DNA of 64,000 nucleotides, from the sequence record OQ708376.1. One strand, 5' to 3'. The notes under the pieces are model-generated. The model searched no databases and was not told where the DNA came from. It saw nothing but the letters and a program-made list of their open reading frames with translations. This DNA is from Escherichia phage vB_EcoM_CRJP21. A program made the position numbers and the translations under genes. Shown here in pieces: positions 39,520 through 46,743 of the stretch. The stretch's first letter is position 1. Every line of letters starts with the position of its first letter.

Positions 39520-40086
39520 ATGGTTAAATCTTTGCTACCACCACCAAAACGTCATAAAATCAAAGAAATGAAAGAACAACGTACATTAAAGATGTACAAC
39601 AATTTAGTTCAGTTACTGTGTAAAAGTCCATCGCTCAAAGCAGAGTTTAAAACTGATGATGACCGCAAAGCACTAATTGAGATGAAGTATATGCTCAGTA
39701 AAATGTCCTTTTACAAATTTGTAAAAGAATACACAACTGACCCATTTAGTCCTCGTTGGAGATCCAAACCAAGAGAGTATTTTTACGGTGGTTCATATAC
39801 GGATCGCATTCAAGACACAGTGATGGGAGTTGAATTTGAAATCGATTATGAGCCGAATGGTGTGGAAAGCTGGCCGATTGAGAAACGTTTACCAAGTGAA
39901 GAAGAAATTTATGTTTATGCAAGAAAACTTTCAAATTTCAGTTCAAGAATTACTCTAGGCAATTTAGATTCATTTATTATTTTCTATACACGTGTTGGTG
40001 TAGATAAAATGGTAACTAAACTCAATGAACTTTCATTACAACAAAAACAGATTAATGCATACAAAGACATTACTGATTTATACTAA
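39520..40086 (+). CDS. hypothetical protein, tandem paralog 1 of 3
   Basis: 188 aa; shares a conserved segment with the next two genes. Confidence 0.5.
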   Translation: MVKSLLPPPKRHKIKEMKEQRTLKMYNNLVQLLCKSPSLKAEFKTDDDRKALIEMKYMLSKMSFYKFVKEYTTDPFSPRWRSKPREYFYGGSYTDRIQDTVMGVEFEIDYEPNGVESWPIEKRLPSEEEIYVYARKLSNFSSRITLGNLDSFIIFYTRVGVDKMVTKLNELSLQQKQINAYKDITDLY

Positions 40087-40098
40087 TGAGGAATGGAT

Positions 40099-40614
40099 AT
40101 GTTTTTTGGATCAGTTGGAAAACAAAACAGTACTTTAATTTGGCATGAAATTATCTTTAAAATTATATCTAAAAGCTACTCACTAAAGGATATTATTACC
40201 ACAGATAATGATAGACGTATCCTGTTAGATGCAAAATATAAATTGAGCAAACACCCTTTACTTTCTTTAATCATTGATTACGTTTGTGATTATGAATCTA
40301 GTCGTTGGAAGTGGGAAGACGGCGGTTTATTTCGTGGAAAAACATTCTACGGTGCGGAACGATATGTTTTCAGTGATACATCAAATGGCGTTAAGTTTGT
40401 TATTAGAAACTTTAACTCCAAAGAAAATGATTATCTTGAAAGTGGAGTGAAAGTATATATCGATAATAATAGCAATGTACTAACATATGACGAATCACTA
40501 ATTATGTTACAAATAATGCGTGGTGTTGAAGGTGTAAGAAACAACCTTACTAAATTGAAAATCCAGCAAAATGATATACATAATAGACAGAAAATTAAGG
40601 GTTTATATAAATGA
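40099..40614 (+). CDS. hypothetical protein, tandem paralog 2 of 3
   Basis: ATG 40099 after GAGGA (alternative ATG 40093). Confidence 0.5.
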   Translation: MFFGSVGKQNSTLIWHEIIFKIISKSYSLKDIITTDNDRRILLDAKYKLSKHPLLSLIIDYVCDYESSRWKWEDGGLFRGKTFYGAERYVFSDTSNGVKFVIRNFNSKENDYLESGVKVYIDNNSNVLTYDESLIMLQIMRGVEGVRNNLTKLKIQQNDIHNRQKIKGLYK

Positions 40615-41120
40615 TTTCATTTTTCAAAAAGAAACAAAAAGTTGATGAAACCGGATTAGAATCGTTTCTATGGACTCTTATCATCAAAAAAAGTCCATTG
40701 ATAAAAGAATATGCTATCAATGATGCTAATAGAAAAACTATCATTGAATACAAATATGAATTATCTAAATGTGATCCAATTGTTTATCACTTTGCGAAGT
40801 ACTGTTCAAAAAATTTATCGGATATCACAATCTACCACGAGTCAGTCCCAATGAGTTTTCCTTATGGTGATTGGGTAGATACTTTTGATATTTTTGATGG
40901 GTCAAATGGTTTCAGTTTCTTTTACTCGTCAAATAAAGCAAGTGTTCGTATTAAAACAGACATAGGTTGGACAAAGCATAGCTCAAATAAAGAAGATTAT
41001 AATTTATTAGCTGACGTATACCGAAGTGTGAAGAATTCAAAGGATATTGATGAAAGAATTAAAAAGCAAAATCGTATATCTTTATCACTTGAAACATACA
41101 AGTCAAAGTATGGTGGTTAA
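40611..41120 (+). CDS. hypothetical protein, tandem paralog 3 of 3
   Basis: 169 aa. Confidence 0.5.
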   Translation: MISFFKKKQKVDETGLESFLWTLIIKKSPLIKEYAINDANRKTIIEYKYELSKCDPIVYHFAKYCSKNLSDITIYHESVPMSFPYGDWVDTFDIFDGSNGFSFFYSSNKASVRIKTDIGWTKHSSNKEDYNLLADVYRSVKNSKDIDERIKKQNRISLSLETYKSKYGG

Positions 41121-42753: not shown

Positions 42754-42921
42754 CATATACAAGTGTAATGGTACTAAAAATGCCATTACACTCAATAAAT
42801 ACTCAATATAAATTAACACAAGGATTAAGTATGGCACAACAAATTTTCACAGATATCCACACTACCGGAGTTATTAAATTTCAAAATAATTTTTCTGGTG
42901 CTACTGGTGTAGACATTAAAA

Positions 42922-43458
42922 ATGATGGTTTTAACATTGTCAGTACTCGGATCTATTGATGGTGAAGATAGTTCTCTTAGTGATTCTGTGATTGCATCAT
43001 TCGGAACTAATAAAAACAGTTCTTTTATTATATCTGGATGGACTGGAATGACTGATTCTGAAAATAATGTTAAGATAAAAGCTAAAGCTACTAACGAGAA
43101 TCATGAAACAGAATGGGTAACATTATATGATAGTGCAAGTAATAAGTTATATAATGTATTAAGTTCTAATAATATTTTAATTAATCCACTGTCGGGCAAT
43201 GCTGTTTTTAATATTAATTTATCTGATAGAAATACTACTATTTCGATTGGTGCGGCTCCTACTGAAGTTTATTCAATTACCATCCTATTAACACAACAAA
43301 CAGGTTCAAACCTAGTTAATTGGGGTTCTAATGTTAAATGGTCATATAACAGACCAGTTGTTCTTTCTTATGAAATTGGTGAAAAAGATATTATTTCATT
43401 AGAAACATATGATAAAGGAGTTACATGGTACGGTGCATTAATTAGAGCAGGAGTATGA
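42922..43458 (+). CDS. hypothetical beta-rich protein (possibly fused to upstream ORF 42831-42959 via frameshift)
   Basis: no RBS at 42922; upstream ORF with AAGGA RBS ends at 42959 in another frame; A5 run at 42918-42922. Confidence 0.4.
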   Translation: MMVLTLSVLGSIDGEDSSLSDSVIASFGTNKNSSFIISGWTGMTDSENNVKIKAKATNENHETEWVTLYDSASNKLYNVLSSNNILINPLSGNAVFNINLSDRNTTISIGAAPTEVYSITILLTQQTGSNLVNWGSNVKWSYNRPVVLSYEIGEKDIISLETYDKGVTWYGALIRAGV

Positions 43459-43459
43459 T

Positions 43460-46249
43460 ATGTTAAACAATAATATTGATAATATTGTACAACTTCTTTA
43501 TGGGCATCACAAATTTATTGAAAGAAATACTGGTGATACAATAGACCCAACAGTACAACATTATGTGGTGAATAATCAGGGTGTTTTGGCGAACAACCGT
43601 CATTTTATTAACTATTCTGCAATGGAAGGTCAACCAAACGGTGACGGGACAACAGAAGGTCAAAGTCTATTAATTTTGGGATACATTTATGCGTATCTGG
43701 CAACAAATGATCCAATGTTTTTAGATAAAGCCAAATGGTACTGGGATGCATATCATCAGTACTTTTATGCTGGACGTGAATTACCAGACCCACCAACTCC
43801 ACTTCAATGTAACTGGATAGTTAATGCCAAAGAACCGATTTTGGCTAACTGGCCTTTAGCTGATGATGGATGGCCTACACATGGTGGTTTCAAGGGTGTA
43901 GAATTTACATTTACAAATGGACAATGTAAAATACCACATGGTGCACCTTATTATGGTCAGTTCTTGGATAAAGTAACATTCGCATTCAAAGGTGCTTTAG
44001 CATGGAACCAAATAAATGCGTCAGTAAAAGCATTACTACCAGATGGTAGTGTTGATTGGGATACCCCTGGTGATCAATATGATGTTGACTGGATTATTGA
44101 TTTCATGGGTAGAAAAATCGACTGGGATGGTAATATTTTAGCAGAAGGTTTTGACGAATCTGAAAAAGGAACGGTTCAATTAAAAAATACAACAATTAAT
44201 GGTGTATATAAATTAAATTTTGCTAATCGTCAACCAGTAGAATATGGTGGTGTGATAATTCAACGAAATGAAATGCAACACAACCGACCACTTCATGTTC
44301 CAATTGATTTGGAATTTGCGGATAATGCATCAGATGCAGAATTGTGGTTTAGTGATGCTTCTTATTTGTTATATAAAATAACAAAAGAAAGAAAACATTA
44401 TTTGGGTTGGAAATGTTCATTACTCACATGCTATGCTTATGGTGATATCGACTCCAGAGATAAATTTTTCAGACAAAGTACAATTGTAACCACACCATTC
44501 ACTGATGGTATTTCCTATGAATATTTTTATCCAAGTGATGCTATCGCTAAGTTTGGTAGAAATTCTTTAGGATATATTACTATCAGGCAAGACCAAAGTG
44601 CACAAAGTACAATGGAACAACAAGCTATTTGGTTCAGGGTCAATGCTGATTCTAAATTACTTGTAGATTATGGTGGTGTATGTGATGATGGTAAGCCGTT
44701 ATCATTTAAACCAGTACTGGAATTGTCTAAAACAAAAAATGATCATGATGTAGTAAGATATCGTTGTGGATTACCAGAAAGTAAAGACCAAAATATCACA
44801 CATTCATTAACACCTTTAAGTGCATTTGTTAGAGAAAAGAAAGCAGATGGTTCCCCTTATATAATTGCTGATAGTAGAATAGTTGTTCCTTATGGTGCAG
44901 CTACGTCCGAAATGATATATAGTACTGATATATTAGTTACACGCCGAGATACCATTAATCAGTTAGTTTGTGGTGAAGATGATGGTGCTGTTATTGGATT
45001 TTGGCTATTAGCAACAAATAAGTCTGAAGTTAAATCTTTTACATATCGTTCATATGAAGATGATTACAATATAAGAATTGTAGATGATAATGGTTGGAGA
45101 TGGTGGTGGATGATTCCTGCAACACACGGGGAATGGACTACAATCACACTAAGTTCCGATACATTACGTTTATCTGGGTATCAGCCAAATCATCCAAGTT
45201 CTGACCCAAGACCAGATGCACCAGTATATAGTGAGCTAGAAGATATTACTATTTTACCTGATACAACCCCAGTAGATGGTGTTGCTGCAATAATTGATTG
45301 GTATTGTATTAATGACATTCCAGAATTATATACGGATGCTGACGGTGATGACTATACTATGACATTTTCAATAACAATTGCAGGTGAATCACCATATACT
45401 GCACAGTTAGGGGATTGTGTAATCAAAGATTATTTGTTAAACTCATTGCATTACACACCAGGAACAATACCATTTTCTAACATCACTGACCCGTATGCGA
45501 ACCAGTACTCAGGTTGGCGTGGTTTACCGTATCCAGGTTATCAATATCCAGTGATATATTGTTTTAAAGACCAGCCAGTAGATAACACACGCTTAGGAAA
45601 CATGTTAAGCTTTATGAAAGATTCCCAAACATGGTTTACTCAACAATTCGGTACTGTTGGTCCGTGTGCACAAGCATATGTTTGGAACCGCTGGGATAAC
45701 TTAAAATATGGTGAACCAGATACATTTACTATGCTACATTGGGGTGATCAAGCATGGAGTGGGTATGAACCACGTGCGTTCTTTGGGGCTGCCAGAGCAT
45801 GGCAAGAACTCGCAGAGAGAGGAATTGAACCACCAGCAGATCTTGTTGAATTTTGTGAGAATTGGATTCACTTTTTAATTCAATTTCAAAAAGATAATGA
45901 TGGTCGTTCACCAACAATCTTCAATAAAGATGGCACAGTTGAAGGTCCAGATTGGGACTTTACAGGTCATATGTGTGGGTTGTGGTTAGCTGGGGCTTGT
46001 GCTGCTGGATTGGCTGGATGTAAAATAGAAGGTCTAACAACACTCGCTGATAACTTAGTTCTCGAACTTCAAAAGAATTATGTTATTGTAAATCCAGGTT
46101 CCCCAATGAATGGTTCATGGAGTCCAGCAGTTAGAGAAGGTACTGATAATGGTATGTTTTTTGGTTTCTGGGCAGGTGAGATTATGCGTGGATTGGGGTT
46201 ATACTCAATGTACCGTTTAAACACACCAAATCGTTTCCGTGATTTATAA
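43460..46249 (+). CDS. large hypothetical protein (Trp-rich)
   Basis: 929-aa ORF. Confidence 0.55.
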   Translation: MLNNNIDNIVQLLYGHHKFIERNTGDTIDPTVQHYVVNNQGVLANNRHFINYSAMEGQPNGDGTTEGQSLLILGYIYAYLATNDPMFLDKAKWYWDAYHQYFYAGRELPDPPTPLQCNWIVNAKEPILANWPLADDGWPTHGGFKGVEFTFTNGQCKIPHGAPYYGQFLDKVTFAFKGALAWNQINASVKALLPDGSVDWDTPGDQYDVDWIIDFMGRKIDWDGNILAEGFDESEKGTVQLKNTTINGVYKLNFANRQPVEYGGVIIQRNEMQHNRPLHVPIDLEFADNASDAELWFSDASYLLYKITKERKHYLGWKCSLLTCYAYGDIDSRDKFFRQSTIVTTPFTDGISYEYFYPSDAIAKFGRNSLGYITIRQDQSAQSTMEQQAIWFRVNADSKLLVDYGGVCDDGKPLSFKPVLELSKTKNDHDVVRYRCGLPESKDQNITHSLTPLSAFVREKKADGSPYIIADSRIVVPYGAATSEMIYSTDILVTRRDTINQLVCGEDDGAVIGFWLLATNKSEVKSFTYRSYEDDYNIRIVDDNGWRWWWMIPATHGEWTTITLSSDTLRLSGYQPNHPSSDPRPDAPVYSELEDITILPDTTPVDGVAAIIDWYCINDIPELYTDADGDDYTMTFSITIAGESPYTAQLGDCVIKDYLLNSLHYTPGTIPFSNITDPYANQYSGWRGLPYPGYQYPVIYCFKDQPVDNTRLGNMLSFMKDSQTWFTQQFGTVGPCAQAYVWNRWDNLKYGEPDTFTMLHWGDQAWSGYEPRAFFGAARAWQELAERGIEPPADLVEFCENWIHFLIQFQKDNDGRSPTIFNKDGTVEGPDWDFTGHMCGLWLAGACAAGLAGCKIEGLTTLADNLVLELQKNYVIVNPGSPMNGSWSPAVREGTDNGMFFGFWAGEIMRGLGLYSMYRLNTPNRFRDL

Positions 46250-46250
46250 C

Positions 46251-46279
46251 TTGACATAGAAAAAGTAATTATGTATAAT
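46251..46279 (+). promoter_or_regulatory. consensus sigma70 promoter TTGACA-17-TGTATAAT
   Basis: TTGACA 46251-46256, TATAAT 46274-46279 with upstream TG. Confidence 0.6.
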
Positions 46280-46280
46280 T

Positions 46281-46310
46281 AGAGAACTTCATATGGAGTT
46301 CTCTTTTTTT
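46281..46310 (+). terminator. intrinsic terminator
   Basis: AGAGAACTTCAT / ATGGAGTTCTCT stem then TTTTTTT. Confidence 0.6.
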
Positions 46311-46323
46311 ATAAGGTGATAAA

Positions 46324-46743
46324 ATGTTAAATGAACGTATTAAAAATGCACTACATGTATTGAATCAAGAAGTCAATTCTATTCATAAAAGTACTGACCG
46401 TTATAAAGTAATGCATGAAATCAAACAAGAATTGGAATCTATTAATAAGGGAGAGTGGTGGTATCTTCAGCCCGAATATCAAACTCGTGAATTAAACGAT
46501 GTTGAAAAAGAAATTGTCAAATTCATCACTACTCGTTATTGTGATACATCAGAGAATGATGTATCAGCGAACTTCAATCTTACTAAATTGGAAGTCGAAG
46601 AAAAATTCCATTTTGATTGGCTTGATTGGATTGAAATGGTAATGGAACTAGAAGAAAAATTCAATGTTGAAGTTGATGAAAAGTTCGAGAATAATGAAAC
46701 TAAGCTGTATGAACTAGTAGAACATATTCAAAAAATGTTGTAA
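46324..46743 (+). CDS. protein with ACP-like C-terminal domain lacking carrier serine
   Basis: FDWLDWIEMVMELEEKF aligns to ACP DSLDTVELVMALEEEF with Ser replaced by Trp. Confidence 0.5.
   Translation: MLNERIKNALHVLNQEVNSIHKSTDRYKVMHEIKQELESINKGEWWYLQPEYQTRELNDVEKEIVKFITTRYCDTSENDVSANFNLTKLEVEEKFHFDWLDWIEMVMELEEKFNVEVDEKFENNETKLYELVEHIQKML

Follow-up and report, generated by a model that had tools for sequence, protein, structure and literature searches.

The window analysed here, a stretch of 64,000 nucleotides of Escherichia phage vB_EcoM_CRJP21 (OQ708376.1), comes from a 121Q/PBECO4-type jumbo coliphage genome (Asteriusvirus). On its + strand, at positions 43460..46249, an open reading frame with an ATG start encodes a protein of 929 aa, exactly as given in the preliminary description of this DNA, and it is the longest frame in the window, the runners-up being 909 and 898 aa long. 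Compared with the remaining + strand ORFs no shorter than 100 aa, the protein is enriched in tryptophan (31 residues, 3.34% versus 1.2% elsewhere; binomial P = 6e-7) and in glycine (8.2% versus 5.75%; P = 0.0015), whereas tyrosine shows no enrichment (5.6% versus 5.64%), so that the reported richness in Trp, Tyr and Gly applies to the first and the last of these residues. Upstream of it lies the gene of a 178-aa protein (42922..43458, +), here called the adaptor, a homologue of 121Q gp508 and phi92 gp140, and the start of the adaptor gene is overlapped in another frame by a 42-aa ORF (42831..42959, +) annotated in 121Q (gp507) and phAPEC6 (gp315c). Adaptor and enzyme genes follow each other in this order in phi92- and 121Q-type relatives as well; the phi92 gp141 gene lies within the baseplate module, whereas the CRJP21 pair stands alone between nucleotidyltransferase and ACP-like genes. 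The described promoter/terminator junction 3' of the gene is present: a sigma-70 promoter consensus with a perfect 12/12 match (TTGACA-17-TATAAT; 46251-46279, +) directly after the stop codon, and 3' of it a terminator-like 10-bp hairpin (46281-46304, +) with a T-run to about 46311. As sequence features, this promoter and the terminator-like site that follows it mark the end of the cassette at 46251..46311.

Pfam-A yielded no match to the 929-aa protein even at E <= 1, in line with the earlier remark that no motif could be placed in it. Despite the empty Pfam result, PHROG matches the protein over its whole length with phrog_2871, 'tail protein' (E = 0, 1509 bits, residues 2-926). The full-length homologues phi92 gp141, PVP-SE1 gp050, 121Q gp509, phAPEC6 gp314c and SPN3US gp124 range from 99.8% to 43% identity, with 121Q gp509 and phAPEC6 gp314c at 99.8% and phi92 gp141 at 57% over 99% of the length. 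Among 18 Asteriusvirus records from varied E. coli and Salmonella hosts the protein is 99.7-99.9% identical, the carriers of the near-identical form having been isolated on O157, K-12, APEC and Salmonella. Across genera the identity is 45-57%, with hosts ranging from Escherichia to Pseudomonas, Shewanella and Gluconobacter. Some database records label the homologues tail fiber.

Virion proteomics had been proposed as a check, and the relevant data exist for the close relative: phAPEC6 gp314c was detected by mass spectrometry in purified virions with 8 unique peptides and 13% coverage, and gp315c, the counterpart of the 42-aa ORF, with 69% coverage (PMC7247149). By analogy with this 99.8%-identical orthologue the CRJP21 protein is taken to be a virion component, and the 42-aa ORF may be part of the adaptor/enzyme cassette. 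In the 2026 cryo-EM study of the phi92 particle gp141 is neither located nor mentioned (PMC13450770), the SPN3US and Goslar papers say nothing on a homologue, and enzymatic activity is reported in the literature for no phrog_2871 relative. As the family is already annotated as a tail protein, the result is at present a moderate surprise.

The adaptor gene points to the way in which the protein is probably held on the particle. BLASTP relates the 178-aa product to phi92 gp140 (E = 3e-20), and its PHROG matches are phrog_32568, phrog_7760 and phrog_9017, 'tail fiber protein'. An all-against-all comparison of upstream proteins delimited a docking domain in its C-terminal ~105 aa (43141-43455, +); the upstream proteins of phi92, phiR8-01, SPN3US and an Enterobacter prophage match one another with E from 1e-12 to 1e-29, and Erwinia MM7 gp041 shares the domain as well (E = 4.5e-31). 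In every separate-gene context examined, namely the window and five others, the docking domain is encoded directly 5' of the enzyme gene. Depending on the type of virion, the upstream protein begins with the N-domain of a T7 tail fibre, with a tail-tube domain or with no more than a short stub. The adaptor of the podovirus phiR8-01 begins with a genuine T7 tail-fibre N-domain (Pfam Phage_T7_tail), as in T7 gp17-type N-terminal anchors, and that of a siphovirus-type prophage with a major-tail-protein domain. In a P2-like prophage relative (P0068) the enzyme is itself fused to an N-terminal baseplate wedge protein gpI (Tail_P2_I, PF09684, E = 7e-52). This domain was absent from the CRJP21 protein in the Pfam scan; since Tail_P2_I occurs only as the P0068 fusion, some homologues owe their 'tail protein I' label to the transfer of a name.

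Taken from sequence, these arrangements suggest that the adaptor probably fastens the 929-aa enzyme to the tail, and the one line of evidence that points to physical contact between the two proteins is synteny. A Rosetta-stone fusion of docking domain and enzyme was absent from the best 120 homologues. Four representatives with N-terminal extensions of ~275 aa showed similarity to the domain in a 24-column motif alone (E 0.0076 versus 0.5 for the reversed control), and P0295, which joins an N-terminal enzyme fragment to the docking domain, may be an artefact of assembly or gene calling. The same logic, here putative, is known from K1E, K1-5 and phi92 fibre I, in which a small anchor carries an endosialidase (PMC13450770). 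K1E/K1-5-type enzymes are, however, beta-propeller or beta-helix trimers, whereas the CRJP21 enzyme is a predicted (alpha/alpha)6 barrel, probably monomeric, with a docking domain of a separate family. By eye, the N-terminus of the adaptor seems to hold the start motif of phi92 gp140. Reading the 42-aa and 178-aa ORFs as a single gene with a +1 frameshift was dropped as unnecessary, phrog_32568 spanning the whole 178-aa product.

The structural model, its DSSP assignment and the structural matches revealed an (alpha/alpha)6 glycoside-hydrolase barrel interrupted by CBM-like beta-sandwich inserts, rather than the non-enzymatic structural fold that the preliminary description had named as evidence against an enzyme. 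Part 1 of the predicted barrel comprises aa 1-135 (43460..43864, +; helices 6-22, 65-82 and 85-102), part 2 aa 286-345 (44315..44494, +; helices 291-308 and 311-328) and part 3 aa 691-929 (45530..46246, +), with six long helices by DSSP and, according to the conservation tables, the conserved residues Y694, W742, D746, W766, Y769, R772, G885 and E907. Between them lie two beta-rich inserts, the first at aa ~136-285 (43865..44314, +; modelled strands from 145 to 281) and the second at aa ~346-690 (44495..45529, +; modelled strands from 352 to 656). The second holds a W546-x-W548-W-W cluster and a conserved D542, kept in 60/65 divergent relatives, and its region occurs duplicated in some relatives. 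Foldseek against the PDB, another of the checks proposed earlier, returned weak local matches and no full-length solved homologue. These matches include CBM-type jelly-rolls and are not tied to one particular insert; they comprise tandem CBM22 domains (4xup, prob 0.9-0.97), EngBF and SGBP-B, and would agree with insert 2 probably consisting of two jelly-roll domains. The closest structural similarity of the predicted barrel is to GH126, and the structural matches also include non-catalytic (alpha/alpha)6 barrels, the complement TED domain and SSV19 VP4.

Two short motifs of the clan GH-M active site connect the barrel with GH8 enzymes. In part 1, T64-T65-E66-G67-Q68-S69, putatively the motif of the general acid (codon of E66 checked at 43655-43657, +), pairs reproducibly in hhalign with TTSE55GQS (T52-S58) of E. 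coli BcsZ, used alone or as a profile. In part 2, the motif N289-A-S-D292-A-E294-x-W296 (D292 codon at 44333-44335, +) pairs just as reproducibly with S-A-S-D116-G-D118-V-W, which holds the ASDGD signature of GH8. In BcsZ, E55 (CelA E95) is the GH8 general acid and D116 (CelA D152) a substrate-binding Asp, the GH48 counterpart of which acts as base (PMC8805304, PMC13363691). The proposed equivalence of E66 and E55 draws on sequence and helix position. The alignment scores themselves were low: the barrel against BcsZ alone gave a non-significant E of 0.17, and against a 71-sequence BcsZ profile, the power of which is limited by homologues that are all at least 60% identical, E 0.036 with a probability of 1.4%. 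Because hhalign was not significant, only the reproducible motif pairing was used, with shuffling and conservation as backing. In 200,000 shuffles the two motifs arose singly at 0.29% and 0.06%, and both together at 0.

Conservation was followed in 55 close relatives and in a divergent set of 65 sequences with 19-35% identity. Of the close relatives 54/55 retain E66, and of the divergent ones 59/65. N289, D292, E294 and W296 are present in all 55 close relatives, and in the divergent set D292 is kept in 63/65 and W296 in 59/65, with E294 in just 13/65. The GH8-type general-base Asp, in contrast, is absent at the aligned position 770 (BcsZ D243, 'S-Y-D-A-x-R'), where close relatives carry Gln (39/55) or Glu (16/55), divergent relatives mostly Gln (44/65) and the CRJP21 protein Glu; the flanking Tyr769 and Arg772 are kept.

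The family thus differs from GH8 endoglucanases such as E. coli BcsZ and C. thermocellum CelA, which have a base Asp where it has Gln or Glu and which lack its large inserted domains. The pattern of a Glu and an Asp kept and the GH8 base absent is also that of GH126, whose conserved residues include Glu84, Asp136 and Tyr194; any correspondence of single residues to these would be tentative. GH126 itself (C. perfringens CPF_2247, PDB 3ren; Listeria PssZ, 6r2m) is only 11% identical to the 929-aa protein, 3ren gave no match at the sequence level by phmmer or by profile search of the PDB, and these bacterial enzymes are single barrels of ~330 aa without the two big beta inserts of the virion component. 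The GH48 cellulases CelF and CelS gave no sequence match either, and the equivalence of their residues is putative. No Pfam or NCBIfam glycosidase model matched the full protein (Pfam E <= 1) or the insert-free barrel (E <= 10), and the GH8 model PF01270 likewise did not match the 929-aa protein. When the PDB was searched by sequence and by profile, all that emerged was a marginal match to a helix hairpin of a GH76 enzyme (E 0.028) and a spurious one to the Hia adhesin. Since the profile-profile similarity to GH8 is weak, the proposed GH-M homology rests on the fold and the two short motifs.

We consider it fairly probable that the protein is a low-copy glycosidase tethered to the virion at the tail or baseplate periphery, representing a separate, uncatalogued GH-M-like (GH8/GH48/GH126) family. 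The N-terminal part of the 178-aa protein would anchor to the virion and its conserved C-terminal docking domain would hold the enzyme, two long loops of whose barrel would carry the jelly-roll, CBM-like beta domains. These domains would bind a bacterial surface glycan, which the barrel would cleave with E66 as general acid; D292 may distort the substrate or serve as a GH48-type base, and D746, E907 or D542 are alternative candidates for the base. Cleavage would let the phage pass through the polysaccharide layer or move along it. We infer catalysis, adaptor-enzyme contact, particle position and substrate from the evidence given above. The earlier guess of a carbohydrate-active, tail-associated virion enzyme is thus supported by the mass spectrometry of the orthologue, the predicted fold and the motif conservation. 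Given how little the protein varies among phages that infect many Gram-negative genera, a conserved envelope or matrix glycan is a more likely target than a serotype-specific capsule.

A protein of this kind might also bind without cutting, as a lectin-like receptor-binding tail protein that recognises a conserved surface sugar or as a structural scaffold of the baseplate periphery. The GH8 base position not being kept and the existence of non-catalytic (alpha/alpha)6 barrels like those named above speak against the glycosidase reading. However, E66 and D292, the two residues important for GH-M chemistry, are the best-conserved acidic residues of the whole family down to 19% identity, which pure binding or scaffolding would not obviously need, and GH48 enzymes work with a Glu and an equivalent Asp (PMC13363691); we regard a non-catalytic protein as unlikely. 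A peptidoglycan or periplasmic-glucan hydrolase acting from the virion after outer-membrane penetration is harder still to reconcile with the data and appears most improbable. The very broad conservation of the protein across Gram-negative hosts would fit a universal beta-1,4-linked substrate, and beta-1,4 glycans are what GH8-type enzymes cut (PMC8805304), but the modes of attachment (T7 tail-fibre N-domain, gpI fusion, tail-tube-domain adaptor) place the protein at the periphery and not on the central spike, the tape measure or ejected proteins. Besides, these phages have separate lysozyme or transglycosylase virion proteins, and no (alpha/alpha)6 peptidoglycan hydrolase was found among the structural matches.

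The term depolymerase, as used in the preliminary description, may suit the protein in the sense of a virion glycosidase with putative catalysis, and is unlikely to suit it in the sense of a serotype-specific capsule or O-antigen tailspike, for which the identity across genera is too high. Serotype-specific depolymerases diverge fast, whereas this protein is 99.8% identical among Asteriusviruses from the different hosts listed above and keeps 45-57% identity across genera. Neither a right-handed beta-helix trimer nor a beta-propeller sialidase fold occurred among its structural matches, and the predicted fold is not any other known tailspike fold. A classical host-specific tailspike that determines which serotypes the phage infects would find support in the tail fiber annotation of some records, in a review table whose entries on the fibres of phi92 include gp141 as a 'Glycosidase' (PMC5380687) and in the Atoyac podophages, where a tail-fiber/glycosidase pair is one of the variable regions proposed behind host-range differences (PMC7857530). 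The variable fibre genes of rV5/phi92-type phages are, however, different ones (PMC8594841), and we think this explanation very unlikely.

The virion enzymes so far characterised as glycan-degrading are for the most part beta-helix or beta-propeller tailspikes or esterases, each tuned to a single serotype. The glycosidase favoured here would be built otherwise, as an (alpha/alpha)6 barrel that contains CBM-like domains of its own and comes with an exchangeable adaptor, and it is conserved across phages of many genera. The adaptor/enzyme pair occurs in very different phages of all three tail morphotypes, and, as a tentative idea that we advance with considerable doubt, it could be a horizontally mobile, morphotype-independent 'plug-in' cassette for host recognition, the enzyme founding a new GH-M-like family with a non-GH8 base and acting on a glycan shared by Gram-negative bacteria, for example ECA, core-proximal sugars of LPS, cellulose or a PNAG-type matrix. 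A swap of the adaptor N-terminus would then suffice to fit myovirus baseplates, podovirus tails and siphovirus tail tubes, and the cassette would have a share in the unusual breadth of host range that has been reported for several carriers, namely phi92 and the Atoyac podophages. If active, the protein would define a glycoside-hydrolase family not described so far, directed at a bacterial target that is conserved, could partly explain the 'Swiss-army-knife' host range of phi92-type phages and the promiscuity of Atoyac podophages, and might provide a portable module of adaptor and enzyme for host-range engineering or for anti-biofilm enzymes. A gp141-type protein is as well a concrete candidate for the unassigned density in the periphery of the phi92 baseplate.

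The 929-aa protein encoded at 43460-46249 (+ strand, ATG start) belongs to the phage particle, as evidenced by its orthologue phAPEC6 gp314c (99.8% identical), which ESI-MS/MS of purified phAPEC6 particles identified among the structural proteins (105.3 kDa; 8 unique peptides, 13% coverage) and which the authors counted among three in-silico tail-fibre candidates (PMC7247149). The cryo-EM study of phi92 assigned the hub, spike, wedge (gp145/146), sheath initiator and fibres I and III; gp141, the phi92 relative of the protein, is unmentioned there, and fibre II and the fibre I arm are without assignment (PMC13450770). The preliminary description of the ORF as the largest in the window (the next longest encode 909 and 898 aa), free of a placeable motif and rich in Trp and Gly, was correct apart from the Tyr enrichment that it also proposed. 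Measured against all remaining + strand ORFs that encode 100 aa or more, Trp (31 residues, 3.34% vs 1.2%, binomial P 6e-7) and Gly (8.2% vs 5.75%, binomial P 0.0015) were over-represented, with Asp and Pro likewise elevated; Tyr was not enriched (5.6% vs 5.64%). A Pfam-A scan of the protein gave no match even at E <= 1.

The AlphaFold2 model, built from a 55-sequence alignment, was confident (mean pLDDT 88.1, pTM 0.82) and consists of eleven long helices in three chain stretches (residues 6-102, 291-328 and 709-919), between which two beta-rich inserts are placed (residues ~145-281 and 352-656). The best structural match was the GH126 enzyme CPF_2247 (3ren; score 25.6, 325/332 residues aligned), followed by 4xuv (GH105, 22.1), 6shm (GH76, 22.0), YteR (GH105, 21.2), 4q2b (GH8, 21.1), CelA (1cem; GH8, 20.6), PssZ (6r2m; GH126, 20.3) and 5bv9 (GH48, 20.1). 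No solved structure matched the protein over its full length, and Foldseek against all PDB chains returned weak, local matches only, to tandem CBM22 modules (probability 0.9-0.97), EngBF, a Bacteroides surface glycan-binding protein and GH48 (probability 1.0). [quoted passage not shown] Together, the fold matches and the CBM-type local matches indicate that the modelled architecture is that of a carbohydrate-active enzyme, with a barrel of catalytic type and CBM-like jelly-rolls emerging from two long loops. The likeness to carbohydrate-active enzymes previously suspected from sequence segments is thus borne out by the model, and the prediction did not return a non-enzymatic structural fold.

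Since a shared fold is no proof of catalysis, catalytic residues were sought by hhalign comparison of a barrel-only alignment with BcsZ, the GH8 enzyme from the E. coli K-12 genome. The matches to the single BcsZ sequence (E 0.17) and to a 71-sequence BcsZ profile (E 0.036, probability 1.4%) were weak, yet both runs paired the same two motifs: T64-T65-E66-G67-Q68-S69 opposite BcsZ T52-T53-S54-E55-G56-Q57-S58, and A290-S-D292-A-E294-x-W296 opposite BcsZ A-S-D116-G-D118-V-W. BcsZ E55 (CelA E95) is the GH8 general acid and D116 (CelA D152) a substrate-binding Asp, the equivalent of which serves as the base in GH48 (PMC8805304; PMC13363691). When the 929-aa sequence was shuffled, the two motif patterns turned up in 0.29% and 0.06% of trials, and never jointly in 200,000. 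Across the 55-sequence alignment and 65 divergent representatives at 19-35% identity, respectively, conservation was 54/55 and 59/65 for E66, 54/55 and 58/65 for Q68, 55/55 and 63/65 for D292, 55/55 and 59/65 for W296, and 55/55 and 61/65 for R772; E294 was kept in 55/55 and 13/65.

The BcsZ general base D243 (S-Y-D-A-I-R) aligns with S-G-Y769-[Q/E]770-P-R772, in which Y769 and R772 are retained and position 770 is Glu in the 929-aa protein. This position is Gln in most members, hence a GH8-type base is no feature of the family; the same holds for GH126, where the position is occupied by Leu (PMC13363691). Candidate alternative bases are D746 (52/65 divergent representatives), E907 (53/65, with Asp in 7 more) and D542 of the second insert (60/65). 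As the protein fails both the sequence-model and the base-residue tests of GH8 membership, filing it as GH8 is unwarranted. Catalysis nonetheless appears likely, and we read the proteins as a distinct, clan GH-M-related family in which the putative acid and Asp are present and the base would be other than that of GH8; the 929-aa protein would work in the manner of GH-M enzymes.

This family is sharply bounded and of moderate size, given that just 384 of 1.84 billion cluster representatives reached E <= 1e-3 in an exhaustive HMM search. Homologues were detected by tblastn in 530 phage genome records. The protein is present at 99.7-99.9% identity in 18 Asteriusvirus jumbo phages, including 121Q (gp509, annotated "tail protein"), PBECO4, phAPEC6, G17 and the Salmonella SD-series, and a 100% identical database entry already exists. 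Identity is 57% over the full length to phi92 gp141 and its kin, 41-56% to homologues in PVP-SE1-like and phAPEC8-like phages, the jumbo phages SPN3US and PCH45, Felix-O1-like Erwinia phages and Autographiviridae with ~40 kb genomes (phiR8-01, Ss1, Atoyac1), and 31-34% in rV5-like and Vibrio phages. Prophage copies at 45-53% identity were found in a large protein collection for Enterobacter, E. coli, Pseudomonas, Shewanella, Spongiibacter and Gluconobacter; those in lambda-like prophages are widespread in Enterobacter and E. coli genomes, one cluster holding 1020 member sequences. In some relatives a portion of the second beta insert occurs twice; others carry extra C-terminal modules, such as a "non-contractile tail sheath protein"-type TIM barrel. 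The extensions of relatives P0120 (1557 aa) and P0096/P0104 (about 1475 aa) measure ~550-600 aa; that of P0120 comprises the Pfam "non-contractile tail sheath protein" N-domain and TIM barrel and would make a two-enzyme-like polypeptide.

Directly upstream of the enzyme ORF lies the gene of a 178-aa protein (42922-43458, + strand; 121Q gp508), termed here the adaptor, whose C-terminal ~105 residues are homologous to phi92 gp140 (E = 3e-20). In 6/6 separate-gene contexts examined, the gene just upstream of the enzyme ends in this docking domain. The N-terminal part is short in the window, in phi92 (gp140, 157 aa) and in SPN3US (gp123, 156 aa); the Erwinia phage MM7 protein gp041 has 244 aa (docking domain E = 4.5e-31). 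The podovirus phiR8-01 protein g043 (269 aa) bears a genuine T7 tail-fibre N-terminal domain (PF03906, 36.3 bits, above cut-off), and the pair occupies the tail-fibre slot between internal virion proteins and terminase. In an Enterobacter lambda-like prophage the 560-aa adaptor starts with a major-tail-protein domain (phrog_158, E = 3e-17; Pfam Phage_TTP_12 just under cut-off) followed by fibre-like repeats. Its N-terminus resembles an adjoining 156-aa protein (E = 2.7e-8; prophage loci L006-L008, 8319-12823), which may be the tail-tube protein, and this likeness suggests that siphovirus-type prophages may carry the enzyme on the tail tube, either along its length or at its end. A P2-like prophage has no separate adaptor; there a complete Tail_P2_I wedge domain continues at its C-terminus into the enzyme, as one fusion protein whose gene directly follows V, W and J. 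A search for adaptor-enzyme fusions gave none that was unambiguous; from the synteny and the polarity of the gpI fusion we infer a physical contact between the two proteins. In the simplest model, the variable N-terminus of the adaptor would plug into the phage's own tail and the constant C-terminal domain would hold the enzyme. The neighbours of the pair in the window are non-structural genes: one for an RlaP-type nucleotidyltransferase precedes it, an ACP-like gene and a spanin gene follow it, and the pair ends at a terminator-like hairpin, an arrangement that fits a self-contained, mobile two-gene cassette. In MM7 (locus L011, 1538-7265) the enzyme homologue gp042 has an extra ~180-aa insertion, and the separate protein gp040 (502 aa), encoded two genes upstream, contains a stand-alone copy of part of the second beta insert (HMM 472-658, E = 1e-50), so the CBM-like module also occurs alone.

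The protein is most plausibly a peripheral, low-copy putative virion glycosidase that uses its own binding modules to bind, cut and traverse surface polysaccharide. The earlier proposal of a tail-associated depolymerase or other virion enzyme agrees with the virion orthologue and the CAZyme-type fold; a serotype-specific depolymerase is unlikely, as conservation is far too high for one, with 99.8% identity between phages whose isolation hosts were O157, K-12, APEC and Salmonella strains and ~50% across genera. The BASEL study argued likewise for the conserved segment of the rV5/phi92 fibre locus that hydrolyses glycans, and showed these phages to depend on ECA (PMC8594841). Atoyac podophages infect several genera, and their "tail fiber" and adjoining "glycosidase superfamily protein" are among few variable regions, proposed as host-range determinants (PMC7857530). 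Candidate substrates are ECA, core-proximal LPS sugars and cellulose or PNAG-type matrix glycans; peptidoglycan is less likely because attachment of the enzyme would be peripheral.

Existing labels in the family are tail protein (phrog_2871, E = 0, for the 929-aa protein), tail fibre and tail formation protein. The idea of a glycosidase-like tail protein is as such not new, as phi92 gp141 is listed as "Glycosidase" in a review table (PMC5380687) and the Atoyac1 homologue is annotated as glycosidase superfamily protein. We did not find described in the literature, for this family, the placement near GH8/GH48/GH126, the conserved Glu and Asp motifs with the missing GH8 base, the CBM-like inserts, or an adaptor combining a constant docking domain with exchangeable anchors across myo-, podo- and siphovirus contexts. 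Known virion depolymerases are SGNH esterases or trimers with a beta-helix or propeller fold; the protein is a predicted barrel. It is a well-founded candidate for a new glycosidase family and open to testing; with its adaptor it is a candidate portable host-recognition module, which would not surprise specialists.

A 42-aa ORF (42831-42959, + strand; 121Q gp507) overlaps the adaptor start in another frame. The product of its phAPEC6 counterpart gp315c (4.66 kDa) was detected in virions with 69% sequence coverage (PMC7247149), and hence may be a third, tiny cassette component. There seems to be no need for a +1 frameshift at ...ATC TAT TGA TGG... that would join this ORF to the adaptor, since phrog_32568 spans the 178-aa product end to end. 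The promoter/terminator junction noted earlier at the 3' end of the enzyme ORF is present as sequence features: a perfect (12/12) sigma-70 consensus TTGACA-17-TATAAT (46251-46279, + strand) one base past the stop and, within 2 bases, a strong 10-bp hairpin with T-run (46281-46304, + strand; site to 46311), which may act jointly as the "stop upstream, start downstream" punctuation typical of the phage group. A transcript from the predicted promoter would start inside or just before the hairpin. The ACP-like gene that comes next after the enzyme ORF (46324-46743, + strand; phrog_5934/4154, weak Pfam PP-binding_2, ACP in the phAPEC6 annotation) is an odd neighbour for a tail-protein cassette and a spanin gene. 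Farther upstream, three consecutive ORFs of 188, 173 and 169 aa (39520-41120, + strand; 121Q gp502-504) are apparent paralogues with the common N-terminal motif SPSLKAEF.TDDDRKALIEMKY.LSK.
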